Origin: Minisyncoccota bacterium
GTDB lineage: Bacteria; Patescibacteriota; Minisyncoccia; Phycocordibacterales; UBA1006
Direction: 5' to 3'
NCBI GenBank assembly: GCA_036405175.1
Contig: DASWYC010000002.1
Coordinates: 403,714-467,713, forward strand
DNA length: 64,000 bases
Under the pieces are notes generated by a model, which saw only the letters and a list, made by a program, of their open reading frames with translations, ran no database searches and was not told the DNA's origin. Every line of letters begins with the position of its first letter. Positions within the stretch are counted from its first letter, which is position 1. This document shows positions 8,124 to 48,723 of this stretch, piece by piece. The position numbers and the translations under genes were made by a program.

Positions 8124-8145
8124 TGGCATTCTTTATTGCCCCGAA

Positions 8146-8180: not shown

Positions 8181-8200
8181 TTTATCTTTATATTTTAAGA

Positions 8201-8779: not shown

Positions 8780-8817
8780 AATCCTTCAAAAAGAAAAGTT
8801 CGTGTAGTCCAGAACTT

Positions 8818-9867: not shown

Positions 9868-9881
9868 ATATCCTAAGTATA

Positions 9882-10985: not shown

Positions 10986-10988
10986 ATC

Positions 10989-12191: not shown

Positions 12192-12261
12192 GGAGTAAGA
12201 ATAGCAAAATTCAAGACTTTTTACCATCTTTGGTTTCCGAAAAAACATCCTCTTCATCACG

Positions 12262-12362
12262 TTCAAGGCAGTCGCGGAAACCGCTATCAAGGAGCGCCGT
12301 TGCAACGCTTCGGCGCGACTATGATGGACAGCTGAGCGTAGGCCCGATAGAGGCCGCTGTCT
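12262..12362. other. GC-rich structured element in the mreC-tgt spacer (candidate ncRNA or tgt 5' leader)
   Basis: A 14-bp long-range helix (CACGTTCAAGGCAG / CTGTCTTGAACGTG) encloses three GC hairpins: GCGG-AAA-CCGC, GCGCCG...CGGCGC and GGCC-CGATAGA-GGCC. GC content is far above the surrounding DNA. Confidence 0.3.
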
Positions 12363-12379
12363 TGAACGTGGTGAAGAAA

Positions 12380-14126: not shown

Positions 14127-14168
14127 TTTTCAAAAAATACGGGATAACTAAGTAGCTATTTTGTCAAT

Positions 14169-16166: not shown

Positions 16167-16278
16167 TAAACCTGGCGACAACCTACTTTCCCCTATTACG
16201 AGTATCATCGGCTCATATGGGCTTAACTTCTGGGTGCGGAATGTGTCCAGGTGTTTCCCCACTGACATATCACCAGAT
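16167..16278 (-). rRNA. rrf: 5S ribosomal RNA
   Basis: The reverse complement aligns from memory to bacterial 5S: 'CCTGGCGACAACCTACTTTCCC...CGGCTCATATGGGCTTAACTTCTGGGTGCGGAATG...CCAGGTG'. Confidence 0.85.
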
Positions 16279-16405
16279 TTAAAATTACAACAAACGTAAC
16301 CCTCCATATTCTTCGTTTACAAAACACTTTGATTTGATGCGTAATATCTCTTAAACACACTTTTTCGGTAAAATTACTTGAAGCGAATTTTGTTTATGTA
16401 CAAAA

Positions 16406-19430
<3,025 letters not shown>

Positions 19431-19542
19431 CTTAACTCCTATTAGGAGTTTTATACATAATTATATGACTTGCGTCACACAATTGCGTTTACAATTTAAC
19501 CACTACGAGTAATTTTACTTACTTAATATACTTAGTTCTCAA

Positions 19543-32176: not shown

Positions 32177-32214
32177 ATATATGTATAGTAGCAATTTTTA
32201 GCTTAAAAATCAAA

Positions 32215-32242
32215 AACACTCACCGCCCTACGCGTGAGTGTT
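32215..32242 (-). terminator. Terminator of the giant gene
   Basis: AACACTCAC-(10-nt loop)-GTGAGTGTT directly abuts the stop codon. The minus sense is followed by TTTTGATTTTT. Confidence 0.55.
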
Positions 32243-35200
32243 TTATTGTGTTGGTGGAGTTGGCGTGGCGCCAGTATCCCCTCCAGTTGATCCAGAATCT
32301 CCAGATCCACCAGTAGTTGAGCCTGAGTCACCACCAGTAGTTCCGGTAGTACCTGAACCTGATCCAGTATCACCGCTTGGCTGACTTCCAGAATCCCCTG
32401 TTCCAGTGTCACCAGATGGTGTTCCTGTATCGCCAGTTGACCCCGAATCTCCAGATGGAGTTCCAGAATTATCTCCTGTTCCTGAGCCACTTCCATCGCC
32501 ACTTGGGGCGCCTCCGTCAGTTGGAGGCGGAGTTGGTGTGCCACCTCCCCCATTTCCGTTATCTGCATTTACCTGCATACTCTTAAGTTTCATCAATTCG
32601 TCGCGAGTCACACAAACATCGTCAATACACAATTCTTTGGTTTCAACTTTATCTCCCTTAACGGTCTTAGCATAGAAGTCGGTAATTCCGTTTTCAACAT
32701 TTCCAAACCATGCAATCAAATTAGTTCTGAAGGTTGAAGTAATGTTTCCGATATCTTGAATTGCTTTTGTTAAGAGTGGAACCACGCGAGTATAATCAAC
32801 ACTCCACGTATTCTTAAGATCTCCCGCAGCAATACTTGCTGATGAGCTTCCTACATATACTGCATCTGGGAATACGGTTGCAAGCTGTTGTGCCAAGAAT
32901 CCGGTCTGGCGAGTATGTGTTGAATCATAAGTATACTCATAATCGCGAACTTGAATATTCATTACACTTTCAAGTGAATAACTGGTTTCATTAATATTCT
33001 GCTTAAGACGTACGTCCGACGGTGTTGCAATAGAACAAGTATTGGTTGCGTAGTTACAACTTACTCCCTGCATTGCAGTTCCTGATGCTTTTGAGAACAT
33101 AAGTGGCCATCCAGTCCCTGTTGTTGCATCAATACGAATATTTACTCCTCCTCCAGTTGAAGTAAGTGATGACGCTGTGTTATAAAACTGACTAAGATAA
33201 TTTGCAGCGGTGGTTGCAGTGTTATTCTTAACTTCGAGTGGCGCTGTTGCTGAACCAGTAGTAATTCCTCCTCCAATTCCTACATTTCCATTAGCGGCAA
33301 TTGACATTCGCAACGTACCAGTCGTGGTGGTGGTATTTATCGCAGTAAAGAAATCAATAGCAGTTGCAGCATTCATGAGCGAAGTTCCACCTCCAATAGA
33401 AAGTGAATTGAATAAATCTCCCGGATTTCCAAAGATCATCGCCATTGGCTCTTCTGCATTTGTATAATGATACGCACCAATACGCGCAGATTTAGCAGTT
33501 GTATTAGTACGACTTGTAGTTCCATTACCATCAGCTCCAAGCACCAAGGTAAGTGCTGATGAAGAAATATCAAGTCCTCCGTTTGTTGAAGATGGTGATG
33601 TGGTATTGATTCCCACATTTCCGTTATGATCAATACGCATACGTTCAGTTGTTGTAGTGGTAGTGTTTGCAGTAGTTGAGAATGTAAGTGCAGTTCCGCG
33701 AGCTGAAGCTGCAGTCCATGCTTCTGTTGCAACAGCAGTTACGTTTGCTCCAATATATTCAGCATAGGTAGAAGAATCAGTGGTTCCAAATTCAAGGCGC
33801 CCAACAGCAGCAGAGAGTGTTGCATTTCCGCTCGTGAATGAGCGAAGCATACGAGCAGTATTTGCTGATGATGAGTTAACTACCAAAGCAACGCTCGGTG
33901 CGGTTGTCCCAATTCCAACGTTTCCAGTTGTTCCATCAACATCAATTCCAACCGATGATCCATTATAGAGTTTAAGCCCATTACCTCGCAAACGAAGTGG
34001 CAAGTAAGCTGCTCCACTGCGGTTATATGCAAGGATTTCTCCTGATCCTCCTGTATAGCTCATTTCAAGACCTGAGCCTGATGCTGGCACATTGGCACTT
34101 ATTGTACGAATAGTTCCATTTGTATCAAGAGTTGCTCCCGGTGTGGTTATTCCAATTCCAAAGTTACTTCCATTGTTAATGTAACTGCTTCCTGAATATG
34201 GGAAGAACGCCCTATTAACACCCCCGTCAGTAACCGCAAGACCAGTACCACTTACATATGAATACCGATTATTTATGCCATCATATGCAAAGAAGTAGTT
34301 ATTAGTTGAACCATTACTTGCATATATTCCCCCTCCGGTAGAAGCAATAAAAATGTTTCCGTTTGATTGAGGAGTAAATGTTGTGTAATTTGATGCGTCA
34401 TATGACATTCGAGTAGTTCCTGTTACCTCTAATTTAGCACCAGGATTTGTAGCTCCAATTCCAACGTTTCCTCCACCGAGAACGGTCATGAGTGGATTTC
34501 CAATAGTATTGCTTACCTGAAGAATTAACTCACTGCTACCTAATGCAGTACGATTATTGCCACCATTGTGCTTATATCCGACAAGGTTAATAGCAGCTGT
34601 GGTTGGAGTTGAACCCCCATGATACCCCACAAGAGCAAATGGAGTTCCGGTATTAGACCCCCCAGCAGTAAACCCGGCCAGTTGAACACCTCCGGTCGTT
34701 CCTGAGTATGATGCCCATTGCCCTATAGTGTTCGCACTCAAACCAGGACTAAATACTGTACCTGAGTAATCCGGCAAGGCTACATCAGCATCCGAAATTC
34801 TGAATGCAGGATTCTGTCCTAGAGATGAGGCTACTTCGAGGTTTGCACTTGGTGTTGCTGTTCCAATTCCTACATTTCCATTACCCAGAACCGCTAATCT
34901 TGTTCCACCACTTAGAGAATATGCAGCATTCGTATGTGCACTTACCCAAGGAAGAACAGTGGTCATACTTGTATTGCTTGCAATAGCAGAAATCACCTGT
35001 GTTTCTCCATCACTAGTCATCGTGATAGTATCTCCTACCTTAAATATATTTTGAAATTGTGTACCTACACCGGTAATTGTTGTACCTCCAGCAGAGTTTG
35101 AAACAGTTCCAAGATCTGTCGTCCCCTGAACAACTTGAAGCTTAGTCACCGGAGCAGTTGTTCCGATTCCTACATTTCCTGAAGATGAAAGGGTTAAGAG

Positions 35201-38200
35201 ATTAATACCTGCATTAGGACTAGTGAATCTTACATCTTTCGCTCCACTAAATGTACCATTACCAAACTGAAGATAGTTTGCATTACTATCAGACGTATAC
35301 GCAAGATCTCCGGATGGAGTTTGAATATGGAATGTTTTTTGTGGACTCGTAGTACCAATACCGACTGACCCAGATTCAAAAATTGCCGCATAGTTATTTT
35401 GTGCTCCTGACGCAGAGGCATACAATCCAACATTGGTAAGTGCATTAGCTCCCGTTGAACGTGTTGCAGTGTTGTTGAAGTATCCAGCCCATGCAGTAAG
35501 TGCGCCAGCCGTGGTATTGAATGTTGAGCCCGGATTGCTACTTTCAAATGTTATACGGTTTGCAGTTTGAGCGGTAATTACATCAGAAACATCCAACTTA
35601 GCACTTGGATTAACTGTTCCTACTCCAATATCTCTTCCGCCTACCCAAAGTGTACTTCCATTGCTGTTTCTCAAATCTGCGAGTACATGGCTCGTTGATG
35701 CTCCTGAATCAACAATGAAACGTGCGTTGTTTGGTGAACCTTCAATCGCGTTAGTTCCACTAATCTTAAGTCCACTATCTACAATTTCTAACTTCTTAGC
35801 AGGCGCCGCTGTTCCAAGTCCCATATAGCCACCACTGGTTAAGGTTAACAAGTTACCACTGTTAAGATCGCCGCTCGTTCCAATCTTGAATTTATCTGAG
35901 TCGCTATTATCAATTCCCATGGTGTAACGTGTTGAGCTCGTAAGCAAGAAGTGCATTGAAGCATCTCCCGTTCCACTTTGTTCAATCGTAATTCCGTTGG
36001 CAGTACTCGTTGCGGTATTTGATTCAGAAACATGGAAGCGTGATGAAGCAACCGCTGGACCAAGTGCGAGATTACCGCTTGCAAGAATCATCGCATCCGT
36101 ACCTCCACTATTCTGGAAACGAATCCCTGCATTTGCTGAATAAATAACCAAACCTCCGCTTGTTGCAGCTGAAGTTTGAAGGACCATTGAGTCTGCCCAA
36201 CCAGATACGCCGGTATAGGCTCCACTTGTTGCAGAAATGAGTCCGCTTGCACTGTCGCTATTAAAACTCATGATTGCTCGTGCAGCTGTTCCGGTATTTG
36301 GGTTGCTGAGGACTATATCACCATCACCATTTACATCTTCACGAACATTCAACTTAACAGTCCCAGGACTATTCATTCCGATTCCAACATTTCCTGTTCC
36401 TTGCCCAGCAAGAATAACATTACCGTTATATTGGAATTCAAGTGCAGCACCTGAGTTAAGGAAGGTATCTGCATCGTTATTTGCAACAAATCCAAATTGT
36501 GCATTTGCAGAAGAACCGTTATTGAACGAACTACTCATCTTGAATGAGGTTGCTCCGGCCACCGTAGTTGGAACATTAGTGAGCAACAATCCTCCTCGGT
36601 ATGCGGTTGAGCCTGATGTACGAATTTGTGCGTAGTTACCGTAGCCTGCCGCAGCACCTGTTACTACATCGAATACGTTATTAGGTGAGGTTGTCCCTAC
36701 TCCAACATTATTATTTGCAAGCACAGTAAGAGCTCCATTTGATGTTCCTCCTCCATCCAAGTAAAGTGCTCCAGCTGCGCGAACACGCATAGTAGTTTCA
36801 CCATTAAGAGTGTAAATTGCACCGGTTTCTGTTCCATCATCACGGAAACGCAATACAGTATTAGCAGTACCAGTTCCATTAAGACTCAATTGGTCCCCTG
36901 TGCCTGAAACAACTGAGAGCTTTGCAACGGTTGGATTTATATCTCCGAGTCCTGTATTTCCTCCCTGGATACGCATTGCTTCTGCAAATCCAGAACTTGC
37001 GAGTCCATTGGTTGTTGTTCCAAAGCGAAGTGCTGACCCTGTCTTGGTATAGATAGCTGGATCTGCTGCTGAGTTAGCAAGCATAGTAATTGGCGCATTA
37101 CCGTTTGCATCCACTGATGACATTACTTCTCCACTTGCGGTATACACATGAAGTTTATTAGCTGGACTAGTGGTTCCAATTCCAGCACTTCCTGCAACAT
37201 ATACTGAACCCATTCCAACCTTCGCATCTGGCACAGTATCAATAGTTGTTCCGGTTACTGAGAATCTAAACGCTCCATATTCTCCACTTACATTTCCATT
37301 AGGATAATATCCAAAATCTCCCCATCCAACACCAGCACCATTAAATCGAATATTTCCAGATGATTCGTTTGCAGTATACCCAGTAGTGCTTTCTGCTGGA
37401 GCAGCATTAGTACCTGAGCCAATGAACAAACCTACTGTATTCTTTGGAGACAAGAATGATGGAGCTGAACTCGTTGAATTATTTAATACCCCACTTGAAT
37501 AGACGCTAAATGCATCAGTTGCAGCATTAATTTGAAGTGATCGTGTGGGCGTAGAGGTTCCAATTCCAACATCTCCATTAAAATATGAATTCAAATCAGA
37601 CTTGAGTACAAAATTTGAATTTGCTTCAGACTGTGCACGTCCATTGGTAACAAATGCAAGATATCCATTTGTTTGATTTGCAGCTATATATGAGGGTCCT
37701 GTGTTGCGGGTAAACATCAAAGTGGTTCCTTCAAGTTGTGCACTAAATCCTCCACTTGCAACTTCAAGAGTTGCAGTTGGCCCTGCCGTTCCGATTCCAA
37801 CCTTTCCGTTTGCCTGAACACGCATAATTTCTGAACCTGAAACAAACCAACGTTGAACCGTATTGTTTGCATTATTGTTTGAAACTTCAACGCGCAAACC
37901 GTTTGATGATGTTCCAGTATCGGTGTTAGTAAAGGTAGATACATAGCCCCCAGCAATACCCTTTTCAACGTGAAGAGGTGAAGAAGGCGTAGTTGTTCCG
38001 ATTCCAATATTACCTGAATCAAGGATTCTCAAACGCTCACCTCCTGCATTACGGAATACAAATGGTAATCCACCTGTACTATATGCGGTTGAGATACCCG
38101 CAAGACCATTTGCCTGATCCACAAAGAGTCCAACACGTCTATTATTGGTACCGTCGTTAATACCAACACCATACGCAGCAGCACCTGCTGATGTTTGAAC

Positions 38201-41200
38201 GTTAAGGACTTGAGGATTAAGTGATACACCTGCTCCGTCAATAATAGGAAGATTATTTCCAGCTCCAACATGAAGAGGTGCGAATGGTGCGCTGTTTCCA
38301 ATTCCAACATTTCCAGTTGTTCCAACAATGCGCATACGCTCAGTGAGTGCAGTATCGGTTGTGACTGCACGAGTTGAGAACGCAAGATCTCCAACGGTAT
38401 TTGTTCCACCGTTTGTTAAGAGCCCTTTAATCGCAGCATATCCAAGTGATCCAGCCGTTACTGATTGAGCATTTCCAAATGTAATTGCTCCTCCTGAACC
38501 GGCAGTTGCAACGTTACCGTTAAGTGCAAGAACTGATCCACGTGCCCCAGCATCAGTCATTGCGGCGGTGAGCTGTGTAGTTCCATAATTTTCAACTCCG
38601 GCACTTGGCGTAGTGGTTCCAAATCCAACTTCACCAGTAGAGTCAATTACCATTCGTGCCACAGCATCAGTATTGTCGTAAATTGAGAAGTTTGCTGATG
38701 AATCAATTCCAAGACCATAGGTTCGAGACGTCTGCGAAGAGGCCTGAAGTGTGAGTGCATTGTTTGATGCAGCTCCTGTATTGATTTGAAGTTTTCCGGT
38801 TGAAGGAGTTGCGGTTCCAACTCCAACATTTCCATCAGTCACCACGAAGAATGGCGTGGTATTGAGGTTGTCCGCAATACGGAGCAAAGATGCATCGCTA
38901 CCACTATTACCTCCAGTAATCAACATTCCTGTTGCGGTTCCTCCTCCGTTACTAATATGAAGATTGTAAACAGAATTAGAAGATGCACTAATATGCAAGT
39001 TTGAGTCAGGCGTTGTTGTTCCGATTCCAACTTTTCCAGTATTATCAATAATTAATTGATTAGGACTTGCCCATGTACCAAAGACAAGGTTATCTGCAGC
39101 AGAGATTGTAATAGCTCTATCAGTCATACTTGTTCTACTCAAACGGAGATGCCCACCAGTATCATCTGCTATATGCAACTTGCCTCCTGGAGCACTGGTT
39201 CCAATTCCAACATTTCCCTGATCAAAGATCGCTGCGTAATTAAGCTGAGCACCTGATGCAGAAGCGTAGAGTCCAACGTTAGTTAGCTGATTAGCACCCG
39301 TTGAACGTGTTGCGGTGTTATTGAAATATCCAGTCCATGTAGTAAGCGCACCTGCTGTAGTATTGAACGTTGAGCCAGGGTTGCTACTTTCAAATATCAT
39401 GCGGTTTGCTGTTTGTCCTGTAGCGACTTCAGAAACATCAAGTTTAGCTCCCGCTGTGGTAGTTCCAATTCCAACATTTCCTCCACTTGCTTGAAGGCTC
39501 AAATCATACGCGGTTGCAGTTCCATCAACGCGTCCTGCTTGAATCCATCCTTTTCCACTAGCGCCAACTCCAAAGTTGATTCCATAAAGACGATTATCGT
39601 TTGATACTGTGAGCCCAACAGCAGCTCCCGATCCAAGTGTCATGTTTTCTGCATTTGCTGCTGCAGAAATCTGAAGACGTGAAGAAGGAGCGTTTGTCCC
39701 AATTCCAATTCCAACGTTTCCACTACTATCAATTAACATTCTTGTTGAACCAGTTGTTGTGGTTGTGTTTGCTGCAGTACTAAAGAAAAGAGTGGTTGCG
39801 GTGTTCATGCTTGAGGTTCCACCTCCAATAACAACATTGTTTGCACCCGCAGAACTTGAGGCAACAATAATAGCGAGAGGTTCTTCTGCATTAGTAGCAT
39901 GAGGTACTCCAATACGGGCTTCCTTAGTGGCTCCGTTGGTTCGTGTTGTATTAGAACCATCAGCTCCCACAATCAAACCAATTCCTCCTGATGCAATATC
40001 AAGCCCTCCATTAGTGGTAGTTGGTGAATTAGTTCCAATTCCCAAGCGACCATTGGTGTCATCCCAGAAAAACTTACCATTGTTTTGTGAAAGTGTTCCA
40101 CCTGATCCAGCAAACACTACTGATCCTTGCGTGAAACCAGTTGGTGTAATGTTTCCATTGAAAGTTGTTGCATATACGTTTGCGTAACGCTTAAGAGCTG
40201 ATCCAAGGTTATTAGCATTGTCAGAAGCTGGCCCAACGTTTCCTGAAACTTCAAGCTTGAAGGTTGTTGGAGTAGAGGTTCCAATCCCCACATTTCCACC
40301 AAAGTCATTAATTACCAAATTCCCCCCACTTGCTTGACCTCCATTATTTACCTGCATACGGTAGTAGGTATCACCCGTTGCTGCGCCTGAAGAGAACTGC
40401 ATTGATGTTCCTGTAGAGTTGATAAGGAAATCATTGTTCATAAGGGTAAGCGAACCTGATTGCCCTGATGCATTTCTAATATCTACACGACGCAATATTC
40501 CACTACCTGATACTCCAATTCCCACATTACTAAAACTGTTAATGCGCATTGCTTCGGTCATTACTCCTGCACTTGTTTGTGATGAAAGCTGTAAATAACC
40601 CGATGGACTTCCTGGTGTTCCATTCTCTTTACGTCCTGCAATAGATGCAAATGCGCCTACTACTCCCGAAGCAACCTGTCCTCCAAAACCAAGAGAGCCT
40701 CCTTTATCTCCTGCCTGCGAATCACTTGATTCAATAAATGCAATATTGTTTCCGGAGGCGGTAGTAGCGTTTGGAGCTTGAACGTCAAACTTTGAACCAT
40801 TGTTCATGGTCGTTGTTCCAATTGCAAAATTACCAGCAAAGTAGGATTGTCCTCCAGCTGAGTAGATTGAGTAATTAGTTGTTCCTGCAGTTTGATTATC
40901 AAGATACAAACCATATGCCGTTCCAATCGTTCCTCCTCCAGTATTATTTACGTTACGTGCCCACAATGAACGAGCGTTAGTAATTGCTCCACTTCCAGTG
41001 TTATTAACTCGTCCTGCAACCCCCGTCGCTGTTCCAAGTGTTACATTGCCAGCATGAGAAACATACCCATACAATGAGCGAAGATCCATATTGGTCATAT
41101 CTTGATTTTCAGCAGGATCCGTATAAAGTGCGTAGAGCGTGTTGTATCCAAAATTAACTCCACTTGCACGTGCACCGGTCATATCAAAAACTGGACTGAA

Positions 41201-44200
41201 TTGATTTGCAACAAATGAATCACTAGCAGAATATGCATTTGGATTAAACTGAATAGTTGGAGAATTTTTAATTGCGAAGAGGTGTGATGTGGCATCATTT
41301 GGGTCAAGTGTTGAAGTATTAAATACCATGCTTGGTGTCTGATACAGTGCACCGCTTGCATCAATTGCAAGTTTTGTGTTTGCGTTTGCATCTTTCCACT
41401 GCTGCAAGTCACCTGTTTGTCCAGTTGTTCCACCTACAATCAATCCAACGGTTCCAGAAGCGGCAGTCTTTACCTCAAGCTGAGCCCCTGGAGTTTGTGT
41501 TCCAATTCCAACCGTACCAGTCTCAGTAACACGCATACGCTCTGCACTGTTGGTAACAATGAGCAATGGATTGGCTTGATACGTGATAATATACGCCTTT
41601 TCACGGTATACGGCAGCAGTTGCATTTGCATTCCCGTATCCAACAGACATTCTCTGAACACCAGCATCATCAAAGTATCGCATCGATGAAAAACCTGTAT
41701 CGTTTGTATTCTGTACAGCTAGAGGTACTGACCCAGGAGCATTAGCGACAACATGAAGTGCATATGCTGGAGTAGTAGTTCCAATTCCAACGTTTCCGGC
41801 GCTCGTATCAACAACAAATTGATTAGAGTTCACTACAAAGTCTCCAGCTCCAGAAAGACTTACATTTAGGTTTTGCCCAGCTGCAGGAGTCACGGTAAGT
41901 GCACCTGATGAAATAATTGCTGGTGTTGAAATATTTGTTGTGAATACCGGAGTTGTTCCAAATACCAAAGCACCGGTTCCAGTCTCGTCTGAAATCTGTG
42001 TTGCAATACCTGACGAGAGTGTTGTGGCAGTAAATGCACTTGCACCGTTACCAATCACAATACCTGTAAGTCCGGTTGTGCCAGTTCCTCCTTGATCAAC
42101 GCCCACGGTTCCTGTTGAAGTAAGATTTTTTGACGCATCAGTAAATACAACCTTACTTGCAGTAAGTCCTGAGAAGTTAATGGTTCCACTTGAGCTAATT
42201 CCGGTTGCTGCTGAAATTGCCCCAGAAGAGTTTACCTGGAATTGAGATGATGAACCTACTGAGAAATAACCTGAAGGCGATGTTGTCCCTACTCCAACGT
42301 TCCCATTATTGAGAATAGTGATTCTTGGTGAAGAATTTACTCCAAATTGAAGTGCAGTATTTCCATGAAGAACCATTGCATCAGCAATTTCACCCGAAGG
42401 AAATATTGTTGATCCTCCAACATATCCAACGTATCCTCGAAGTGCATTACTTTCATGGAAGCCAACTCCCCCAGCTACATGACTACTATTTAGCTTTACT
42501 GTTATATAACTACTAAAAGCACTTGAAATATTTAATGGCGCTGTTACATCAGGAGTAGTCCCAATTCCAACATTTCCGGTAAAGCTTCCAGTACCCGCAA
42601 CGGTAAGTTTTTGCGCAGCAGAAGTTGTTCCGATTCCAACATTTCCACTTACATCAACAATGAATGGAGTTGAATCTGCGTAGGTTCCATCATCATTCAC
42701 ACGAAGTGCGTATGCGTTAGTTCCGGTTGAGCTGGTTGTTAGATTGAGCGCAGTGTTATCTGCAGCACTTGTTCCAGTAATTCCTATTGAAAGCGCTGAG
42801 CCTGATCCCATTCCTCCCCAATTCCATGTTTGTGTGTAAATGGTGTTATCGATTGAATTAGATGCAACTGCTGGAGTAAGTGCTGAGATTGGCGATGTTC
42901 CTGCGCCCCACATTGGTACACCACTATTCACCATGAGTACTTGTGATCCTGATCCGATTGGAAGACGAATGTAATCAGTTCCGTTGTAGTACATCATGTC
43001 TCCATTTGCATCTGAGCCCAATTGAATCTTGGTTCCATCAACAGCATTATTTGCAATTTTTTGCGTTGTAACGTTAAGGTCTGCGATCTTTGGTGTGGTC
43101 ACTGCTCCATCCTGAATCTTAATGGTGGTTACCGCATCGGTTGCGAGTTTGATTGCAGTAACAGCAAAATCCGCAAGTTTTGCGGTTGTTACATTGCTGT
43201 CTAAAATCTTTGCGGTAATCACAGAGTCTGCCGCAAGCTTTCCTGCAGTGATTGCAAGGTCATCAATTTTTGCAGTAGTAACATTCAAGTCTTTAATCTT
43301 TACCGTCTCAACAGCATCGGTTGCAAGTTTAATTGCGGTTACTGCTCCATCTGCAATTTTTTGCGTTGTGATGTTAAGATCTGCAATTTTTGCAGTAGTA
43401 ACATTCTGATCTAAAATTTTTCCGGTTGTAATTGCATTATTTGAAATGGTGAATACTCCGCCGGTTGTAATGGTTGCATCACCACTCATGGTTGCAGTAA
43501 TCAAATTACTTGAAGCATCGGTGAACACCATACTTGATGGTGAAAGTCCGGTGAGGGTAAGTGTTCCGCTTGCGTTAATAGTGTTTGCAATTACGTTTCC
43601 ATTTGAATCAACCTGGAACTGTGAAGTTGTCCCCACTGAGAATGTTGAGGCTGGCGTATCAGTCCCCACACCAACGCGCTGATTTTGTGTATCAACATTG
43701 AGTACCGTTGCAAGCCCACCTGCAGTTAAGAACTGGAATGTGTCTGTTCGATTACTCTGTGGAACAAACAACCCCTGAGGTGTTGTTCCATTAAATCCAA
43801 ATGTTGTTACACCAGCAGATGAAACAGAGTTTGTATTCTCATTTCCTCCATCGTACTGAACACGCAACTGTGGTGCTGATGTTGAGGTGATCGTAATTGA
43901 GTTTGAGTTAGTGATTCCTCCTGCATATACGTTTCCTGAATTATCAACGCGATAGAGCACGGTATCTCCTGCTGCATTCCAATAGGTAATAAAATCTCCT
44001 GATGGTGCAACATCTGTTGCACGCTGTGCATTAAGCAATACATTACCGTTTGCATTTTGTTTCAGCGCAAGTGTTGTGCCAGTAGTGTTGGCGTTAATAC
44101 CAATGCGCCCATCTGCAAATACAGTGAGTCCAGAATCTGCACTATTGTTTGCCTGTATACGTGCAACAACACCAGATGTTGATGATCCGGTGTTGGCTAC

Positions 44201-45397
44201 GTCAAGAAGTCCGCGCGTACTATTCAAGCTGGTACTGTCCGAAGAGATCCTCAAGATACTCCCAGCCGTGAGAGCACTAGCTCCAAGTTCAAGTGCGTTT
44301 TCTGTTGTGGCTGTTGACCAGTTCCATGTTTGCGTGAAGTTCGTGTTGTCGATAGTGTTGGTTGTAATAGCACCTGTGAGTGATGAGATTGGTGACGTTG
44401 TATCTTCCCATGATGGAATTCCTCCGGTAAGCCCTAGCACTTGCCCGTTAATTCCTGCAGGCAATCGAACATAATCGGTTCCATCGTAGTACATGATGTC
44501 TCCAACGGCATCTGCACCAAGCTGAATCTTTGCACCAGTAACTGCATTATCCAAAATCTTGTTGGTGGTAATAGCCCCATTCCCAATTGCATTGGTAAGA
44601 ATGCTGTTATCTGCAAGTTTATCTGCAGTAATAGCTTGTGTTCCAATTTTTGAGGTGATTACTGAGTAGTCATCGAGCGCAAAGCTATTTACTGACTTAT
44701 TCGCAAGCTTTTCTGCGGTAATGGTGTAATTTACAATTTGGTCAGCGGTAATGCTGAGCTGAGAAAGCTTTGAAAGCGAAATGCTTCCGTCTGCAATTTT
44801 GTCTCCTGTGATTGAACCGTCCGCAAGCTTTGATGAAGTTACTGCAAGATCTGCAATTTTTTGCGTTGTTACAGCAAGGTCAGCAAGTTTCTGAGTAGTT
44901 ACTGATCCATTAGCAAGCTTAGCGGTAGTTACCGCAAGATCTTTGATGCGCTGAGTTGTAACAATGAGTGTATTTGGATTTGAAGAAGTATTTTGTGAGG
45001 CTGTTGTCTTTGGGAGCTGGGCAGCAATGTCACTAATGGTTTGTGAAGTTGGCTTAGTATTCTTTACTTCAGTGTTTTTAATACTTTGGGCAACTACAGC
45101 ATTTGAGTTTTTTGCATTTGGATTAAGCACTAATACGTTTTGTGAAGCAATTTGCTGAGTTCCCTTTGAGGTTAATACGCTTACGGTCTTTGAATTTGAG
45201 TTGAACGTTAAACTTCCTGCGTTTACTGGCTGGAATTTATTTATATCCTGATTTGATGAAGAAATTACATTGAGTGAGTCTGCAGCTGAAGAGTTTTGAG
45301 CGTATGTAACAGGAGTAATTTGCACTGAAAGAAAGAGCACAAGAGTGAGTAATGCGATGAAATTTTTTATAGTTTTATTGCAACGCATTAGGCTCAT
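32243..45397 (-). CDS. Giant secreted cell-surface protein (4,384 aa) with a tail-fibre-like architecture
   Basis: Single uninterrupted ORF. Signal peptide 'MSLMRCNKTIKNFIALLTLVLFLSVQITPVTYA'. Two blocks of 11-residue repeats ('DLAVTTQKIADLAVTSSKLADGSITGDKIADGS', 'NVTTAKIADLNITTQKIADGAVTAIKLATDAV'), each ending in '..MYY.GTDY.RLP.G..GQVL'. Many modules carrying 'GNVGIGTTxP'. C-terminal endosialidase-chaperone-like domain 'SDVRLKQNINETSYSLESVMNIQVRDYEYTYD...RQTGFLAQQLATVFPDAVY'. Final G/S/T/D/P low-complexity tail. Confidence 0.9.
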   Translation of the reverse strand: MSLMRCNKTIKNFIALLTLVLFLSVQITPVTYAQNSSAADSLNVISSSNQDINKFQPVNAGSLTFNSNSKTVSVLTSKGTQQIASQNVLVLNPNAKNSNAVVAQSIKNTEVKNTKPTSQTISDIAAQLPKTTASQNTSSNPNTLIVTTQRIKDLAVTTAKLANGSVTTQKLADLAVTTQKIADLAVTSSKLADGSITGDKIADGSISLSKLSQLSITADQIVNYTITAEKLANKSVNSFALDDYSVITSKIGTQAITADKLADNSILTNAIGNGAITTNKILDNAVTGAKIQLGADAVGDIMYYDGTDYVRLPAGINGQVLGLTGGIPSWEDTTSPISSLTGAITTNTIDNTNFTQTWNWSTATTENALELGASALTAGSILRISSDSTSLNSTRGLLDVANTGSSTSGVVARIQANNSADSGLTVFADGRIGINANTTGTTLALKQNANGNVLLNAQRATDVAPSGDFITYWNAAGDTVLYRVDNSGNVYAGGITNSNSITITSTSAPQLRVQYDGGNENTNSVSSAGVTTFGFNGTTPQGLFVPQSNRTDTFQFLTAGGLATVLNVDTQNQRVGVGTDTPASTFSVGTTSQFQVDSNGNVIANTINASGTLTLTGLSPSSMVFTDASSNLITATMSGDATITTGGVFTISNNAITTGKILDQNVTTAKIADLNITTQKIADGAVTAIKLATDAVETVKIKDLNVTTAKIDDLAITAGKLAADSVITAKILDSNVTTAKLADFAVTAIKLATDAVTTIKIQDGAVTTPKIADLNVTTQKIANNAVDGTKIQLGSDANGDMMYYNGTDYIRLPIGSGSQVLMVNSGVPMWGAGTSPISALTPAVASNSIDNTIYTQTWNWGGMGSGSALSIGITGTSAADNTALNLTTSSTGTNAYALRVNDDGTYADSTPFIVDVSGNVGIGTTSAAQKLTVAGTGSFTGNVGIGTTPDVTAPLNISSAFSSYITVKLNSSHVAGGVGFHESNALRGYVGYVGGSTIFPSGEIADAMVLHGNTALQFGVNSSPRITILNNGNVGVGTTSPSGYFSVGSSSQFQVNSSGAISAATGISSSGTINFSGLTASKVVFTDASKNLTSTGTVGVDQGGTGTTGLTGIVIGNGASAFTATTLSSGIATQISDETGTGALVFGTTPVFTTNISTPAIISSGALTVTPAAGQNLNVSLSGAGDFVVNSNQFVVDTSAGNVGIGTTTPAYALHVVANAPGSVPLAVQNTNDTGFSSMRYFDDAGVQRMSVGYGNANATAAVYREKAYIITYQANPLLIVTNSAERMRVTETGTVGIGTQTPGAQLEVKTAASGTVGLIVGGTTGQTGDLQQWKDANANTKLAIDASGALYQTPSMVFNTSTLDPNDATSHLFAIKNSPTIQFNPNAYSASDSFVANQFSPVFDMTGARASGVNFGYNTLYALYTDPAENQDMTNMDLRSLYGYVSHAGNVTLGTATGVAGRVNNTGSGAITNARSLWARNVNNTGGGTIGTAYGLYLDNQTAGTTNYSIYSAGGQSYFAGNFAIGTTTMNNGSKFDVQAPNATTASGNNIAFIESSDSQAGDKGGSLGFGGQVASGVVGAFASIAGRKENGTPGSPSGYLQLSSQTSAGVMTEAMRINSFSNVGIGVSGSGILRRVDIRNASGQSGSLTLMNNDFLINSTGTSMQFSSGAATGDTYYRMQVNNGGQASGGNLVINDFGGNVGIGTSTPTTFKLEVSGNVGPASDNANNLGSALKRYANVYATTFNGNITPTGFTQGSVVFAGSGGTLSQNNGKFFWDDTNGRLGIGTNSPTTTNGGLDIASGGIGLIVGADGSNTTRTNGATKEARIGVPHATNAEEPLAIIVASSSAGANNVVIGGGTSSMNTATTLFFSTAANTTTTTGSTRMLIDSSGNVGIGIGTNAPSSRLQISAAANAENMTLGSGAAVGLTVSNDNRLYGINFGVGASGKGWIQAGRVDGTATAYDLSLQASGGNVGIGTTTAGAKLDVSEVATGQTANRMIFESSNPGSTFNTTAGALTTWTGYFNNTATRSTGANQLTNVGLYASASGAQLNYAAIFDQGNVGIGTSAPGGKLHIADDTGGHLRLSRTSMTDRAITISAADNLVFGTWASPNQLIIDNTGKVGIGTTTPDSNLHISASSNSVYNLHISNGGGTATGMLITGGNSGSDASLLRIADNLNTTPFFVVTDGNVGVGTATPSTGKLQINTGAASNNALTLQASSQTSRTYGLGIDSSANFSIYDNTDAVARMVIDSTGEVGFGTTTPSAGVENYGTTQLTAAMTDAGARGSVLALNGNVATAGSGGAITFGNAQSVTAGSLGYAAIKGLLTNGGTNTVGDLAFSTRAVTTDTALTERMRIVGTTGNVGIGNSAPFAPLHVGAGNNLPIIDGAGVSLNPQVLNVQTSAGAAAYGVGINDGTNNRRVGLFVDQANGLAGISTAYSTGGLPFVFRNAGGERLRILDSGNIGIGTTTPSSPLHVEKGIAGGYVSTFTNTDTGTSSNGLRVEVSNNNANNTVQRWFVSGSEIMRVQANGKVGIGTAGPTATLEVASGGFSAQLEGTTLMFTRNTGPSYIAANQTNGYLAFVTNGRAQSEANSNFVLKSDLNSYFNGDVGIGTSTPTRSLQINAATDAFSVYSSGVLNNSTSSAPSFLSPKNTVGLFIGSGTNAAPAESTTGYTANESSGNIRFNGAGVGWGDFGYYPNGNVSGEYGAFRFSVTGTTIDTVPDAKVGMGSVYVAGSAGIGTTSPANKLHVYTASGEVMSSVDANGNAPITMLANSAADPAIYTKTGSALRFGTTTNGLASSGFAEAMRIQGGNTGLGDINPTVAKLSVVSGTGDQLSLNGTGTANTVLRFRDDGTETGAIYTLNGETTMRVRAAGALYLDGGGTSNGALTVLANNNVGVGTTSPNNVFDVVTGAAAGYGNYAQIRTSGSTAYRGGLLLTNVPTTVAGATSFKMSSSFNNGSSANAQFGFVANNDADTFLNSGAALEFQYNGNVILAGQGTGNVGIGMNSPGTVKLNVREDVNGDGDIVLSNPNTGTAARAIMSFNSDSASGLISATSGAYTGVSGWADSMVLQTSAATSGGLVIYSANAGIRFQNSGGTDAMILASGNLALGPAVASSRFHVSESNTATSTANGITIEQSGTGDASMHFLLTSSTRYTMGIDNSDSDKFKIGTSGDLNSGNLLTLTSGGYMGLGTAAPAKKLEIVDSGLKISGTNAIEGSPNNARFIVDSGASTSHVLADLRNSNGSTLWVGGRDIGVGTVNPSAKLDVSDVITAQTANRITFESSNPGSTFNTTAGALTAWAGYFNNTATRSTGANALTNVGLYASASGAQNNYAAIFESGSVGIGTTSPQKTFHIQTPSGDLAYTSDSNANYLQFGNGTFSGAKDVRFTSPNAGINLLTLSSSGNVGIGTTAPVTKLQVVQGTTDLGTVSNSAGGTTITGVGTQFQNIFKVGDTITMTSDGETQVISAIASNTSMTTVLPWVSAHTNAAYSLSGGTRLAVLGNGNVGIGTATPSANLEVASSLGQNPAFRISDADVALPDYSGTVFSPGLSANTIGQWASYSGTTGGVQLAGFTAGGSNTGTPFALVGYHGGSTPTTAAINLVGYKHNGGNNRTALGSSELILQVSNTIGNPLMTVLGGGNVGIGATNPGAKLEVTGTTRMSYDASNYTTFTPQSNGNIFIASTGGGIYASNGSTNNYFFAYDGINNRYSYVSGTGLAVTDGGVNRAFFPYSGSSYINNGSNFGIGITTPGATLDTNGTIRTISANVPASGSGLEMSYTGGSGEILAYNRSGAAYLPLRLRGNGLKLYNGSSVGIDVDGTTGNVGIGTTAPSVALVVNSSSANTARMLRSFTSGNATLSAAVGRLEFGTTDSSTYAEYIGANVTAVATEAWTAASARGTALTFSTTANTTTTTTERMRIDHNGNVGINTTSPSSTNGGLDISSSALTLVLGADGNGTTSRTNTTAKSARIGAYHYTNAEEPMAMIFGNPGDLFNSLSIGGGTSLMNAATAIDFFTAINTTTTTGTLRMSIAANGNVGIGGGITTGSATAPLEVKNNTATTAANYLSQFYNTASSLTSTGGGVNIRIDATTGTGWPLMFSKASGTAMQGVSCNYATNTCSIATPSDVRLKQNINETSYSLESVMNIQVRDYEYTYDSTHTRQTGFLAQQLATVFPDAVYVGSSSASIAAGDLKNTWSVDYTRVVPLLTKAIQDIGNITSTFRTNLIAWFGNVENGITDFYAKTVKGDKVETKELCIDDVCVTRDELMKLKSMQVNADNGNGGGGTPTPPPTDGGAPSGDGSGSGTGDNSGTPSGDSGSTGDTGTPSGDTGTGDSGSQPSGDTGSGSGTTGTTGGDSGSTTGGSGDSGSTGGDTGATPTPPTQ
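42940..43450 (-). repeat. 33-bp tandem coding repeats (11-residue protein repeats, block 2)
   Basis: Recurring 'gcaatttttgcagtagtaacattc...', 'gcaagtttgattgcagtaacagc...' units. The plus-frame ORF 43122..43409 is itself periodic. Confidence 0.6.
44400..44950 (-). repeat. 33-bp tandem coding repeats (11-residue protein repeats, block 1)
   Basis: Recurring units such as 'gcaagctttgatgaagttactgcaagatctgcaatttttt'. The opposite-strand ORFs in the track show the same periodicity. Confidence 0.6.
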
Positions 45398-45466: not shown

Positions 45467-45496
45467 TTGACATGCTTTTTAACGTTTATTTATAAT
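45467..45496 (+). promoter_or_regulatory. Near-consensus sigma70 promoter for the CPBP protease gene
   Basis: TTGACA (45467-45472), 18-nt spacer, TATAAT (45491-45496). The divergent giant-gene promoter candidate shows an extended -10 'TGGTACAAT' on the minus strand, and 'AAGAGG' precedes the giant ATG. Confidence 0.45.
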
Positions 45497-45594: not shown

Positions 45595-46293
45595 TTGTAC
45601 CAAAAAATACTCAAAAGTGAGTATGGTACGATTACAGTGATGAATCCAACACTCACCGATGCAATTCAGAAGATTCAAACGAGTAAAGCAGAAATTTTTA
45701 CTCACATTTTGGTGGTGTTTGTACTCCCTATCGTATTTATTAAGACGCAAATTCTTGCAATTGAGTATCGAGTACCCGTTTTAGTAGCACTTATTACCCT
45801 GTTGTGTGCAATTGTGCTCCGAGAAAAGTGGACATTTAGCATGTTGGGACTCAAAACAGGAACATTTAAAAAATATTTTCTTCCCTATGCACTCTTTACC
45901 GTTGCTGGAGTTGCTTTTATCATCAGCATGGCGCATGGACTTGGATATAAAGGCATTCCTCATTGGTGGTCATACCCGCATTTTATCTATCTTTTTTTCA
46001 TTGTATCCCTCTTTCAAGAGATCGGCTATCGTGCATATCTTATTCCAGCACTCGGGAAAATAACCAATGACCCAATCTGGATTCTGCTTTTAAATACAAT
46101 ACTTTTTACCCTATTACACACTATTTTCCCTAACATGATCGTTGGTCTTCCGGTTGCATTTGTTGGCGGTCTTGGGTTTGCACTCATGTACATGAAATAT
46201 CCAAATCTTCCTCTTGTTGTTTTAAGCCATTCAGTGCTTAACTTCTGTGCAGTTCTTTATGGATTTTTTGTAGTTCCAGGTGTTACCTACTAA
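45595..46293 (+). CDS. CPBP-family intramembrane metalloprotease (CAAX protease/Abi family); possible start MNPTL at 45640
   Basis: Polytopic. Motif 1 'FQEIGYRAYL' (EExxxR-like), motif 2 'LFTLLHTIF' (FxxxH), motif 3 'SHSVLNF' (HxxxN). Confidence 0.8.
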   Translation: MYQKILKSEYGTITVMNPTLTDAIQKIQTSKAEIFTHILVVFVLPIVFIKTQILAIEYRVPVLVALITLLCAIVLREKWTFSMLGLKTGTFKKYFLPYALFTVAGVAFIISMAHGLGYKGIPHWWSYPHFIYLFFIVSLFQEIGYRAYLIPALGKITNDPIWILLLNTILFTLLHTIFPNMIVGLPVAFVGGLGFALMYMKYPNLPLVVLSHSVLNFCAVLYGFFVVPGVTY

Positions 46294-46405: not shown

Positions 46406-46843
46406 TTATAGTGCCAAAACGGGTATAAAATTACCCCTAAACGCGGGTTCTTCGGAAGTACCTTCGCTTAATTCGCCTGATTTTACAACAAAATCTTCAC
46501 CTTCCTGAAAGACCCCAACTTCATTTCCTCCTCCACCGGACCAGCACTGTATACGAGATACTTCATTTTGATCAGCAGGTTCACTTAAAATTCCCGTCTT
46601 ACCTTTAGGTACTTCTTGGCAACTTCCTTCAAAAGTTCCAATAATATGTTCTGTATTATTTACCACTAATACAACTTCTGTTTGGGGCATACCGTATTGC
46701 TCTGGTTTTTGATTAAACCTCCAGACATAGCTAGCGCGTCCAAGTTGATCTGATATTGCGGGTGCATTCACCTTCTTTTTGATAACAAGATACACTATTG
46801 CAACAATTACTACTAAAATAATAAGCCAAAGAATCTTTTTCAT
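46406..46843 (-). CDS. Small membrane-anchored hypothetical protein (145 aa)
   Basis: N-terminal TM 'ILWLIILVVIVAIVYLVI'. Extracytoplasmic domain with Cys pair and 'SGGGGNEVG'. Confidence 0.55.
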   Translation of the reverse strand: MKKILWLIILVVIVAIVYLVIKKKVNAPAISDQLGRASYVWRFNQKPEQYGMPQTEVVLVVNNTEHIIGTFEGSCQEVPKGKTGILSEPADQNEVSRIQCWSGGGGNEVGVFQEGEDFVVKSGELSEGTSEEPAFRGNFIPVLAL

Positions 46844-46855
46844 AGTATAAATTTA

Positions 46856-47266
46856 TTATTTACCCACCGTCCGCATCATTTGGGCTCGTATAATGCCGAC
46901 AATATCGTACTGATGCCAGTGATCACTCGACAGAGCTTCCACCGGGACCATCAGGCCTTGTACGTTTATTTTATTTGCCTTTTGTGCACGCTGAAATTCC
47001 TTTTCAGGAATCCCGCTTACATCAAGCGCGTAATATTCTCCGCTTGTCGACTTCATCCCTTGAGCACATTCTTTAGTTTGAGGAGTTTTAGTGTCGCCTT
47101 TCTGTGGTAAACACCCCACCTTACCAGTTACTGCAATTGGTTCTTCGGTAGAAACAAATTGAGCACTTGCAAGCTTTTTATTGAGCCATACAAAGAGAGA
47201 AATACCGAGCACGATAACAATAGCAAGGAACGCAAGTGATTGGTAGCGCTGGCCATCAGATTTCAT
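46856..47266 (-). CDS. Small membrane-anchored hypothetical protein (136 aa)
   Basis: N-terminal TM 'LAFLAIVIVLGISLFVWL'. Same architecture and similar Cys/Lys-rich segment ('GKVGCLPQKGDTKTPQTKEC') as its neighbour. Confidence 0.55.
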   Translation of the reverse strand: MKSDGQRYQSLAFLAIVIVLGISLFVWLNKKLASAQFVSTEEPIAVTGKVGCLPQKGDTKTPQTKECAQGMKSTSGEYYALDVSGIPEKEFQRAQKANKINVQGLMVPVEALSSDHWHQYDIVGIIRAQMMRTVGK

Positions 47267-47373
47267 ACTTCTATTGTACTATGTCCCACCCTTCACCAAA
47301 TCCCATTCATTTCTTACTAAGTGGAAAACCAAAAACCCACCGTACGGTGGGTTTTGATGTCGATATATAGTTT

Positions 47374-48723
47374 TTATCGTACCAAGTAGAACACTCCTGT
47401 TGCATAGGTTGTTGCATTCTTGTCTTGATCGGTTGACGTTACTTTAAAGTAGTAGAATGTGTTGCGATTAAGACTGCGGAGTGATACAGCATGGCTTCTG
47501 GTAAGGCGTCCTTGCGATACAGTCTTGGTGGTTGAATCGGTAAAGTCTGGTGAAGTACTGTACGTAATTACATCAGTAGTCGCCTCGTTAGTTGACCAAC
47601 GAATCGTTGCTGCACGTGACGTATAGCTTGGCGCTGCAGAAAGATTATAGATAATTGGTCGTGAAGTATTTGGGGTTGGTGTTGGATTTACTGATGCTCC
47701 TGCCGTAAAGCTTCGTTCATCAGATTGTCCAACATTATTTGCCTGATCAGTTCCTCCTACACGATAGAGATATCCACGTCCTTCGGTAAGTCCACTAATG
47801 GTTACCTTGTGACTTGTAGTAAATTCTCGTGATTCGGTTGCAGTTTTGGTGTCATTAAGGAGTCCAAACATACGACTATTGGTGTTGTTTTCACGATACC
47901 ACACAACACTAGTAGTTGGCTCATTTGTAGTCCATGTAATGGTTGCTGAACTATTTGAGATATTAGTTAGCTGAACATTACTAATTACAGGACTCATGGT
48001 GTCATTTGGATTGTTTACCGTAGTCCATCCAATGGTATCTGAGGTTACTGAATTTCCACTTCTGTCGGTTGCAACAATTTTTACTTGATAATCAGTTTGA
48101 GCATTAAGGTCCACCAATGGAATTACATGTGATGTTGCAGCTGGTGATGATTGAACCATCTGAGTTGAGGTGCTGCCACGTACGTTATACGTTGCAGTTA
48201 TGGTTACTGGCTCATTAGCAATCACATTAACTGATGCTTTTGAGGTTGTTACGCCGGTTACCGTAAAGGTATTGATCACAGGAAGTCCATTTGAGTTGTT
48301 ATTTGCTGAGGTGGTAAAAGTACGTTCGTTTGAAATACTTGTTGCTCCATCTCTATTTACGCCACCCACCGTAAAGGTGTATTGGGTATTTGGTTGTAAA
48401 TTATTAACTTTGATACGATGCTCGGTGCGATATCCAGTGCTTCGTTGAGCAGCTGCACTAAGCGCCACTTGATAGGTTATTGCATTGCTATTATTTGAGA
48501 GACGATACCAAACTAAACTTGTAGTTGGCTCTGAAGTTCTCCAAGAAATAATTGCAGAATCTTTGGTAACATTTGTTACTTCAATACTGTTATTAATGCT
48601 GGTTACGATTGTTGAATTGTTTTGCGCATGAATGAGCTGAGGTAATACAAGAAGGCTCACGGCAACTAACATGCTTGCCATAAAAATACGCAAAAAATTA
48701 AAACTGGTTGATGATGTAGTCAT
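47374..48723 (-). CDS. Secreted protein with three fibronectin type III-like domains
   Basis: Signal peptide. Three repeats with the FN3 pattern 'SAIISWRTSEPTTSLVWYR...QPNTQYTFTV', 'ATITWTTNEPTTSVVWYR...GRGYLYRV', 'ATIRWSTNEATTDVITYS...NTFYYFKVTS'. Confidence 0.7.
   Translation of the reverse strand: MTTSSTSFNFLRIFMASMLVAVSLLVLPQLIHAQNNSTIVTSINNSIEVTNVTKDSAIISWRTSEPTTSLVWYRLSNNSNAITYQVALSAAAQRSTGYRTEHRIKVNNLQPNTQYTFTVGGVNRDGATSISNERTFTTSANNNSNGLPVINTFTVTGVTTSKASVNVIANEPVTITATYNVRGSTSTQMVQSSPAATSHVIPLVDLNAQTDYQVKIVATDRSGNSVTSDTIGWTTVNNPNDTMSPVISNVQLTNISNSSATITWTTNEPTTSVVWYRENNTNSRMFGLLNDTKTATESREFTTSHKVTISGLTEGRGYLYRVGGTDQANNVGQSDERSFTAGASVNPTPTPNTSRPIIYNLSAAPSYTSRAATIRWSTNEATTDVITYSTSPDFTDSTTKTVSQGRLTRSHAVSLRSLNRNTFYYFKVTSTDQDKNATTYATGVFYLVR

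Follow-up and report, generated by a model that had tools for sequence, protein, structure and literature searches.

A peptidase S74 chaperone domain ends a giant, probably exported and self-cleaving fibre protein encoded on a Candidatus Paceibacterota chromosome

We analysed a 64,000-nucleotide stretch of DNA from a Minisyncoccota bacterium (GenBank assembly GCA_036405175.1, contig DASWYC010000002.1, positions 403,714 to 467,713), referred to below as the window. Its minus strand encodes a protein of 4,384 amino acids (aa), the end of which is, on the evidence of sequence profiles and a structure model, a bona fide peptidase S74 domain, also termed intramolecular chaperone auto-processing (ICA) or CIMCD domain. 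Sequence, model and analogy taken together, we consider it highly probable that this domain terminates a signal-bearing fibre of a Candidatus Paceibacterota chromosome that would be exported, trimerise and cleave itself. We establish here what the domain is and how it folds, that its catalytic residues are intact, that the fibre modules have known homologues, and that the gene lies in a cellular rather than a phage setting. The presence of an S74 domain on its own is a routine annotation, already made by NCBI and JGI; automatic labels for this protein and many of its relatives read 'tail fiber domain-containing protein', 'endosialidase-like protein' or 'Chaperone of endosialidase'. What deserves follow-up is the extreme length of the protein and the extended cassette at its C-terminus, the S74 domain itself being of a known kind.

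A sequence-only reading of window positions 32560-33040 had proposed a C-terminal endosialidase-type chaperone (peptidase S74) without stating the strand. The plus-strand frame of this range is full of stops. The peptide concerned, PSDVRLKQNI…FPDAVY (PSDVRLKQNINETSYSLESVMNIQVRDYEYTYDSTHTRQTGFLAQQLATVFPDAVY), corresponds to residues 4126-4181 on the minus strand (window 33022-32855), and the range takes in the cleavage motif and everything up to where the structured C-terminal domain ends (residues ~4120-4280). The Pfam profile PF13884 (Peptidase_S74, 'Chaperone of endosialidase') matched residues 4127-4181 over its full length (profile positions 1-58 of 58) with 45.9 bits and an E-value of 7e-12, the curated cut-off being 22 bits. 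In the context of the whole protein the match scored 42.4 bits and was the sole Pfam family match in 4,384 aa at E ≤ 0.1; the 64-kb window contains no second S74 domain. When residues 4091-4276 were used in an exhaustive phmmer search, 14,571 cluster representatives were returned at E ≤ 1e-3, including 1,359 at E ≤ 1e-10, and the motif S-D-x-[RK]-[LIVFM]-K was present in 141 of the 150 best. In an alignment of 20 sequences (alignment A1), residues S4127, D4128, R4130, K4132, G4166, A4169, Q4170, W4198, Y4202, P4207, L4208 and Q4214 were invariant.

The profile of this alignment also found solved structures in the PDB, namely the tail fibre 8jov (E 2.8e-8), the ICA domain of the eukaryotic membrane-bound transcription factor MyRF (7dc3, E 1.9e-6) and the long tail fibre of phage S16 (6f45, E 8.5e-6). 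The match to phi29 gp12 (3gud) was non-significant (E 0.47); the Ser-Lys motif was in register in all four alignments. The family profile was needed for this comparison, as a single-sequence phmmer search of the PDB with the C-terminal 385 aa gave only a chance antibody match. For the fold, residues 4107-4280 were modelled as a monomer with AlphaFold2 from an alignment of 122 homologues, which gave a mean predicted local distance difference test score (pLDDT) of 85.3; an earlier run with the 20-sequence alignment had given 55.8 and was not used for the fold search. The model consists of the beta-rich 'donut' part followed by a long helix (positions 96-126 in model numbering, pLDDT ~90). In a Foldseek search of the PDB at E ≤ 0.001, the only significant match was again the MyRF ICA domain (7dc3, E 4.7e-6, template modelling scores 0.54/0.65). 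Next in rank, above this threshold, were the phi29 gp12 chaperone (3gud, E 9.9e-3) and the endoNF CIMCD (3gw6, E 0.1). In a viral structure library, 365 proteins matched the model at E ≤ 1e-3 and were named 'intramolecular chaperone auto-processing domain', 'Peptidase S74' or tail fibre. The proposal of an endosialidase-type chaperone was thus borne out by a Pfam score above the cut-off, profile matches to solved structures, a fold match and a retained Ser/Lys dyad. The C-terminal part of the protein is laid out as follows.

33020 to 33127, minus strand: conserved strands before the cut, residues 4091-4126, ending …C4114NYATNTC4121SIATP4126; predicted distal end of the mature fibre (alignment A1, AlphaFold2 model).
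33002 to 33019, minus strand: catalytic motif S4127-D-V-R4130-L-K4132, in which the bond predicted to be cut, P4126-S4127, falls between window bases 33020 and 33019 (all 20 relatives share S, D, R and K; aligned to MyRF S587/K592).
32855 to 33019, minus strand: Pfam Peptidase_S74 core, residues 4127-4181, including Y4153/Y4155, G4166 and Q4170 (PF13884, 42-46 bits).
32702 to 32854, minus strand: rest of the ICA fold, residues 4182-4232, a strand with the invariant W4198 and then the long helix 4202-4232, a predicted trimeric coiled coil (AlphaFold2 model, Foldseek match to 7dc3).
32570 to 32701, minus strand: family-specific extension, residues 4233-4276, comprising the 'NVENGI…' helix end, a loop, a Cys hairpin (ELC4257IDDVC4262VT) and a short helix (alignment and AlphaFold2 model).
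32246 to 32569, minus strand: low-complexity acidic tail, residues 4277-4384 (composition: 36 Gly, 22 Thr, 18 Ser, 12 Asp, 11 Pro).

Where the chain would be cut can be read from characterised homologues. Mass spectrometry of MyRF located the cut on the N-terminal side of the catalytic Ser, between P586 and S587; cleavage is lost in both the S587A and the K592A mutant, S587 and K592 being equivalent to S911 and K916 of endoNF (PMC8326128). For Bd3182, a protein of the mosaic adhesive trimeric (MAT) fibres of Bdellovibrio, the mature fibre was traced to A781, and S782A blocks self-cleavage (PMC10769870). The crystallised phi29 gp12 chaperone chain (3gud) starts 'SDERHK'. Mature endoNF ends at residue 910. 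Given the cut positions in MyRF, Bd3182 and phi29 gp12, the scissile bond is predicted to precede the Ser, that is, to lie between P4126 and S4127 (…CSIATP/SDVRLK), one residue ahead of the Ser-Asp bond named in the sequence-only reading. A hidden Markov model alignment to 7dc3 pairs the MyRF cleavage residues S587, R590 and K592 with S4127, R4130 and K4132; other MyRF residues that influence cleavage also have counterparts, namely Y615/Y617 (Y4153/Y4155), I637 (L4168), Q639 (Q4170) and F666 (W4198). Mutagenesis of MyRF has demonstrated the importance of S587, R590, K592, Y615, Y617 and Q639. The Ser with a Lys five residues downstream (S-D-x-x-x-K) is present as S4127/K4132 and invariant in alignment A1. 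In place of the separate 'downstream Glu/Lys' catalytic residues that had been expected, the catalytic partner is K4132 inside the motif (Ser+5). From Ser4127 to the end, the fragment measures 258 aa (~26 kDa, pI ~4.2), in agreement with the 'about 250 aa' suggested earlier.

The region before the cut is likewise conserved in alignment A1, with an invariant Phe at column 11. In the model it forms a beta-hairpin (strands 6-9 and 14-17) that bears both C4114 and C4121. This pair (C-x6-C, window 33035-33058) recurs in the two closest relatives (P0004 and P0005) but nowhere else in the family. Altogether the protein contains only five Cys residues, one in the signal sequence and two pairs.

The unusual features of the protein are its length, the conserved Cys-hairpin module and the 108-aa acidic Gly/Thr/Ser tail, the last two of which phage versions lack. 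The tail fits the earlier description as Gly/Ser/Thr/Asp-rich, contains no Lys or Arg, and no anchor motif was seen in it. The Cys hairpin is modelled as strands 149-152 and 155-158 (pLDDT 81-90); the extension matches no Pfam family, and the phage and viral structural matches end before the hairpin. Of the 141 best relatives, 101 have this layout of extension plus tail, the median tail length being 99 aa, and in relatives the W, the N-G and both Cys of the extension are invariant or nearly so ('W-x-x-x-x-x-N-G-I' helix end). An other-frame ATG open reading frame (ORF) of 121 aa (window 32203-32568, minus strand) overlaps the low-complexity tail; most likely it is a by-product of G/C-rich repetitive codons rather than a gene.

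A nearly identical version ('LIAWFGNVENGISELF…EICIDDVCMTKDQL' and a P/D/T tail) is found in Saccharibacteria, on a protein with a quite different body. Since the same cassette sits on different bodies, it appears to be modular across phyla of the candidate phyla radiation (CPR). The Saccharibacteria protein, an 873-aa partial product encoded on a contig of a metagenome-assembled genome (MAG; CAZKPY010000051.1, L003 4-2625), has an S74 core, 'LIAWFGNVENGI', the Cys hairpin and a low-complexity tail; its repeat-rich body ('…SIAIGxxNxATGxxSTALG…') seems reminiscent of trimeric-autotransporter head repeats. A locus search with the single protein returned only two distant genome loci, one of them from Saccharibacteria; a word-indexed homology search gave few or only short proteins, and a search with the extension module only returned seven short fragments, all without context. 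The 182-aa metagenome fragment P0003 carries 'KVETKELCIDDVCVTKDDL' and an S/T/N-rich tail, with no S74 Pfam match in the upstream 100 residues. The Cys-hairpin module may therefore also occur without S74, although P0003 is a partial call. As to function, our guesses are that the extension serves as a disulfide-stabilised cap and the tail as a solubilising or spacer segment, suited to extracellular assembly. A bolder reading, which we offer tentatively and hold to be possible though doubtful, is that S74 core, disulfide-type Cys hairpin and acidic Gly/Thr/Ser tail form a portable cassette specialised for building very long trimeric fibres from chains that have left the cell by Sec, shared by Paceibacterota and Saccharibacteria proteins with unrelated bodies. 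The fibre would then be a host-reaching, host-recognising organelle, the cellular counterpart of a phage tail fibre.

Translation of window 32243-45397 on the minus strand gives a single uninterrupted ORF of 4,384 aa. This product was recovered on three contigs from two independent SRA-run assemblies and equals NCBI HEY1041565.1 ('MAG TPA: tail fiber domain-containing protein [Candidatus Paceibacterota bacterium]') except for the choice of start codon, as the NCBI entry begins at Met4. Agreement of the independent SRA assemblies with the NCBI record rules out an assembly artefact as the origin of the giant ORF. Tandem repeats at the DNA level are negligible, and simple slippage arrays therefore do not account for the tail or the modules. 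The gene and the features upstream of the C-terminal cassette are the following.

32243 to 45397, stop codon included, minus strand: whole gene, 'tail fiber domain-containing protein', 443-kDa precursor (ORF list and translation; identical product on Logan contigs and in HEY1041565.1).
45299 to 45397, minus strand: putative N-terminal signal sequence, residues 1-33 (MSLMRCNKTIKN-FIALLTLVLFLSV-QITPVTYA/Q; hydropathy scan, with the site after A33 read by eye).
44198 to 44962, minus strand: first copy of the N-terminal module, residues ~146-400, with ~10-residue 'LAVTTxKIAD' repeats and a 'GDIMYYDGTDYVRLP…GQVL' (GDxMYYxGTDYxRLP) domain (internal duplication).
42650 to 43300, minus strand: second copy of the N-terminal module, residues ~700-916 (internal duplication, phrog_28766, weak 9eg4_H match).
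33128 to 42649, minus strand: fibre body, residues 917-4090, about 24-30 modules ending '…eRMRI…GNVGIGTTxPxxxLxV' (motif census, duplications, PHROG, phmmer).

In a hydropathy scan, 19-residue windows with a mean Kyte-Doolittle value >1.6 occurred only within residues 9-33 and nowhere at the C-terminus. By eye, this segment is signal-like, with positive charge in the n-region, a hydrophobic core of 13 residues and a plausible VTYA33/Q34 site. It is followed by a low-complexity, S/T/N/Q-rich stretch (residues 34-145) and the first module copy. The two copies of the N-terminal module (residues 201-400 and 701-916) share 39% identity (E 2e-44), and residues 146-200 are also duplicated, at 736-790. 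The 'tail fiber protein' family phrog_28766 matched best at residues 649-733, and orf16 of PDB entry 9eg4 (chain H) weakly matched the second copy (E 4.6e-4). Duplications continue in the body, where residues 2002-2136 resemble 3284-3422 (57%) and residues 1801-1889 resemble 3944-4033 (56%). Duplication at 39-57% identity, including a second N-terminal-like module ~550 residues into the chain, suggests that the protein may have grown by fusion or duplication of shorter fibre units.

The body matches the PHROG tail-fibre families phrog_9942 and phrog_18345. Outside the S74 domain no Pfam family was found in the protein, and no NCBIfam model matches it. A phmmer search with the last 500 residues before the cut retrieved structures of Bdellovibrio MAT fibres, namely 8on4 and 8oml (Bd1334; E 2.6e-6 and 8.9e-6) and 8ond (Bd2133; E 1e-3), in an alignment running over the 'TERMRIDHNGNVGINTTSP' module ('…ERMRI…GNVGI(G/N)TTxP'). 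With these three matches and 24-30 copies of the motif, the body is predicted to consist of trimeric beta-helix modules of the MAT type.

These data suggest how the fibre would mature. The single N-terminal hydrophobic, signal-like segment points to export of the chain from N- to C-terminus via Sec. Once the C-terminus is out, three S74 domains would, as in homologues, join via the long helix 4202-4232, and the S74 trimer would nucleate folding of the upstream chain in the C-to-N direction into a trimeric beta-helix of 'GNVGIGTTxP' modules. In the trimer, the Ser4127-Lys4132 dyad is expected by homology to cut the P4126-S4127 bond and to free the 258-aa acidic fragment. A mature fibre of ~413 kDa per chain would remain, its new C-terminal tip distal to the cell. 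Speculatively, the fibre probably contacts or attaches other cells as Bdellovibrio MAT fibres do. MAT crystal structures span 60 Å per 135 aa and 150 Å per ~370 aa (PMC10769870). If it packed like MAT fibres (~0.4 Å per residue), the 4,093-residue mature chain would, by rough extrapolation, be ~170 nm long. Such a length is comparable to reported CPR cell diameters.

We weighed three other explanations. That the gene encodes a phage or prophage tail fibre or tailspike, a virion component lying in this contig, seems to us extremely improbable, although its S74 domain and fibre modules match phage tail-fibre families and NCBI named it after a tail-fibre domain. The 64-kb window is cellular chromosome (~39% GC). 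It carries 23S and 5S rRNA, tRNA-Ser, TyrRS, MetRS, TatD, iPGM, enolase, UvrB, TGT, MreB, MreC, RodA/FtsW, TrmD and RNase J genes, with TyrRS and MetRS directly downstream of the giant gene on the same strand. Every Pfam-annotated flanking gene is cellular (housekeeping or envelope), and the ORFs scanned in the window, several of which lack a Pfam match, included no phage gene. The neighbouring proteins have identical counterparts at NCBI, which are assigned to a Candidatus Paceibacterota MAG that has a 668-kb contig. A search for close relatives in IMG/VR returned none. Cultured-phage records align to the S74 core only, at 26-37% identity (<60% throughout), and none reaches 80% of the 186-aa query that covers the C-terminal cassette. 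Because of these housekeeping neighbours, the lack of phage genes and of close IMG/VR relatives, and the core-only phage matches, we regard the gene as encoding a cellular fibre and not part of a virion. The putative N-terminal export signal points the same way, since virion proteins assembled in the cytoplasm lack one.

Two further explanations concern the fate of the C-terminal fragment. The S74 domain might act solely as a trimerisation and folding nucleus and be kept, or be cut and stay bound as a cap, so that Cys hairpin and acidic tail would be part of the mature tip. Cleavage is a prediction for this protein, and conservation of extension and tail in the subfamily suggests selection beyond a throw-away chaperone. 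Nevertheless, every residue known to be necessary for cleavage is kept, the motif is as widespread among the best relatives as described above, and every characterised member that keeps the dyad intact (endoNF, phi29 gp12, T5 pb1, MyRF, Bd3182) does undergo cleavage, which makes retention of the fragment unlikely. We give still less weight to a release switch like that of MyRF, in which the C-terminal fragment would stay tethered, for example by its tail in the cell wall, and the S74 cut would free the folded trimeric fibre. The domain does have this role in MyRF, where it detaches an N-terminal trimer from an anchor at the C-terminus, and the signal of the present protein looks cleavable, in which case no N-terminal anchor would remain. 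However, Pfam, hydropathy and composition scans of the part beyond S74 turned up neither a transmembrane segment nor a sortase motif or known wall-binding domain, and the closest cellular analogues are believed to have their N-terminus near the cell and to point the C-terminal tip away from it; this explanation is therefore very unlikely.

Several points weigh against the reading of an exported, self-cleaving trimeric fibre akin to MAT fibres. Judged from the sequence, an uncleaved N-terminal signal anchor is equally possible as a cleavable signal. MAT proteins have a conserved, beta-rich N-terminal domain of ~130 aa after the signal, where the present protein has its low-complexity S/T/N/Q stretch and then the decapeptide repeats. 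Residues 34-145 thus argue against a shared MAT N-terminal domain, which looks absent, although no direct comparison was made. Canonical S74 domains need neither the Cys hairpin nor the 108-aa tail. A function in attachment is speculative, its only basis being the analogy to MAT fibres and to giant surface proteins of CPR bacteria (PMC8080830).

Elsewhere in the window, the giant gene is separated by a 197-bp divergent intergenic region from a gene for an Rce1-like/CPBP intramembrane protease. A perfect sigma-70 consensus (TTGACA-18-TATAAT, 12/12; window 45467-45496, plus strand) lies in this region, upstream of ORF 45595-46293, and the giant gene is faced only by a weak 9/12 site. Just upstream of the fibre locus (window 46406-48723, minus strand) are two ORFs of 145 and 136 aa without a Pfam match and a 449-aa protein of fibronectin-III/purple-acid-phosphatase N-terminal-type domains, in which no phosphatase catalytic domain was detected; these products could be further surface proteins. 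An envelope cluster (window 6510-15299, minus strand) encodes a Germane-domain protein, a TIG plus PG_binding_1 protein, an unannotated 367-aa ORF, TGT, MreC, MreB and RodA/FtsW, and indicates a peptidoglycan-bearing CPR cell that encodes rod-shape machinery. The 23S rRNA gene (3,039 nt against a 2,925-position model, ~110 nt extra) adjoins the 5S gene (window 16170-19445, minus strand) and may carry a small insertion; no 16S rRNA gene lies within the 64-kb window, so that the rRNA genes seem not to be linked.

Little is known of the means by which CPR/Patescibacteria recognise host cells and keep hold of them, and giant surface proteins, the usual suspects, have offered few mechanistic handles. 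The present protein offers a tractable maturation step, the predicted self-cleavage between P4126 and S4127, a step that an S4127A or K4132A substitution should prevent; the binding tip is predicted to lie in the residues immediately ahead of the cut. Homology to MAT proteins, which form prey-recognition fibres, links phage tail fibres, predator adhesins and giant CPR proteins in one architectural family. We found no paper tying S74 or a 'tail fiber domain-containing protein' to Patescibacteria or CPR in a search that covered few subscription-journal papers.

Among known systems, the phage chaperones (endoNF CIMCD, 3GW6; phi29 gp12, 3GUD; T5 pb1; S16 gp37, 6F45) resemble our domain in Pfam family, S…K dyad, fold and C-terminal position on a fibre. 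They differ in that the present protein is not phage-encoded, bears a putative signal sequence and has no sialidase or other depolymerase domain. The phage domains are 26-37% identical to it over the core only (about 110-140 of 174-186 residues), and canonical S74 fragments of ~100-150 aa are shorter than its 258 aa. The likeness to phage endosialidases and tailspikes drawn in the sequence-only reading thus holds for the domain family but not for the whole protein, a signal-bearing CPR chromosomal product. An endosialidase (GH58) or depolymerase function was considered and rejected, as S74 is the only Pfam match and no sialidase catalytic beta-propeller is present. The best structural match, the MyRF ICA domain (7DC3), has a cleavage site identical in form (P/S-D-x-R-x-K) and shares the aromatic pair and the Gln. 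Trimerisation of MyRF is driven by a C-terminal triple coiled coil (PMC8326128). Its cut frees a DNA-binding trimer from an anchor in the endoplasmic reticulum membrane, whereas the present protein has no C-terminal anchor and its N-terminal product is a predicted extracellular fibre.

The giant surface proteins of Vampirococcus lugosii (1,392-4,163 aa), which are thought to mediate host recognition (PMC8080830), are likewise very large predicted surface proteins from the ultrasmall bacteria that live as episymbionts or predators. The domains described in them are WD40, PKD, integrin, fibronectin and DUF11, and no S74 or tail-fibre architecture was reported for them (PMC8080830). The closest known system is that of the Bdellovibrio bacteriovorus MAT fibres, which are secreted trimeric adhesins, and in particular their S74 subgroup, which includes Bd3182 (Caulton et al. 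2024, PMC10769870). The MAT host is a Gram-negative predator and ours a CPR bacterium; MAT proteins measure ~1,000 aa, about a quarter of the 4,384 aa found here, and Bd3182 releases a fragment of ~140 aa as against the predicted 258 aa with its extra Cys hairpin and acidic tail. The MAT capping-loop motif, V-G-G/N-pi-x-x-P-x-x-x-L (PMC10769870), is similar to that of our protein, with spacing that is not identical. Nevertheless, both Bd3182 and the Paceibacterota protein are chromosomal bacterial proteins, with an N-terminal signal that is putative in the latter, and have a long trimeric beta-helical fibre (predicted in our case) of V-G-x-G…P…L loop motifs and an S74 end with an SDxxxK motif, at which Bd3182 cuts itself (S782) and the giant protein is predicted, by homology, to do the same.

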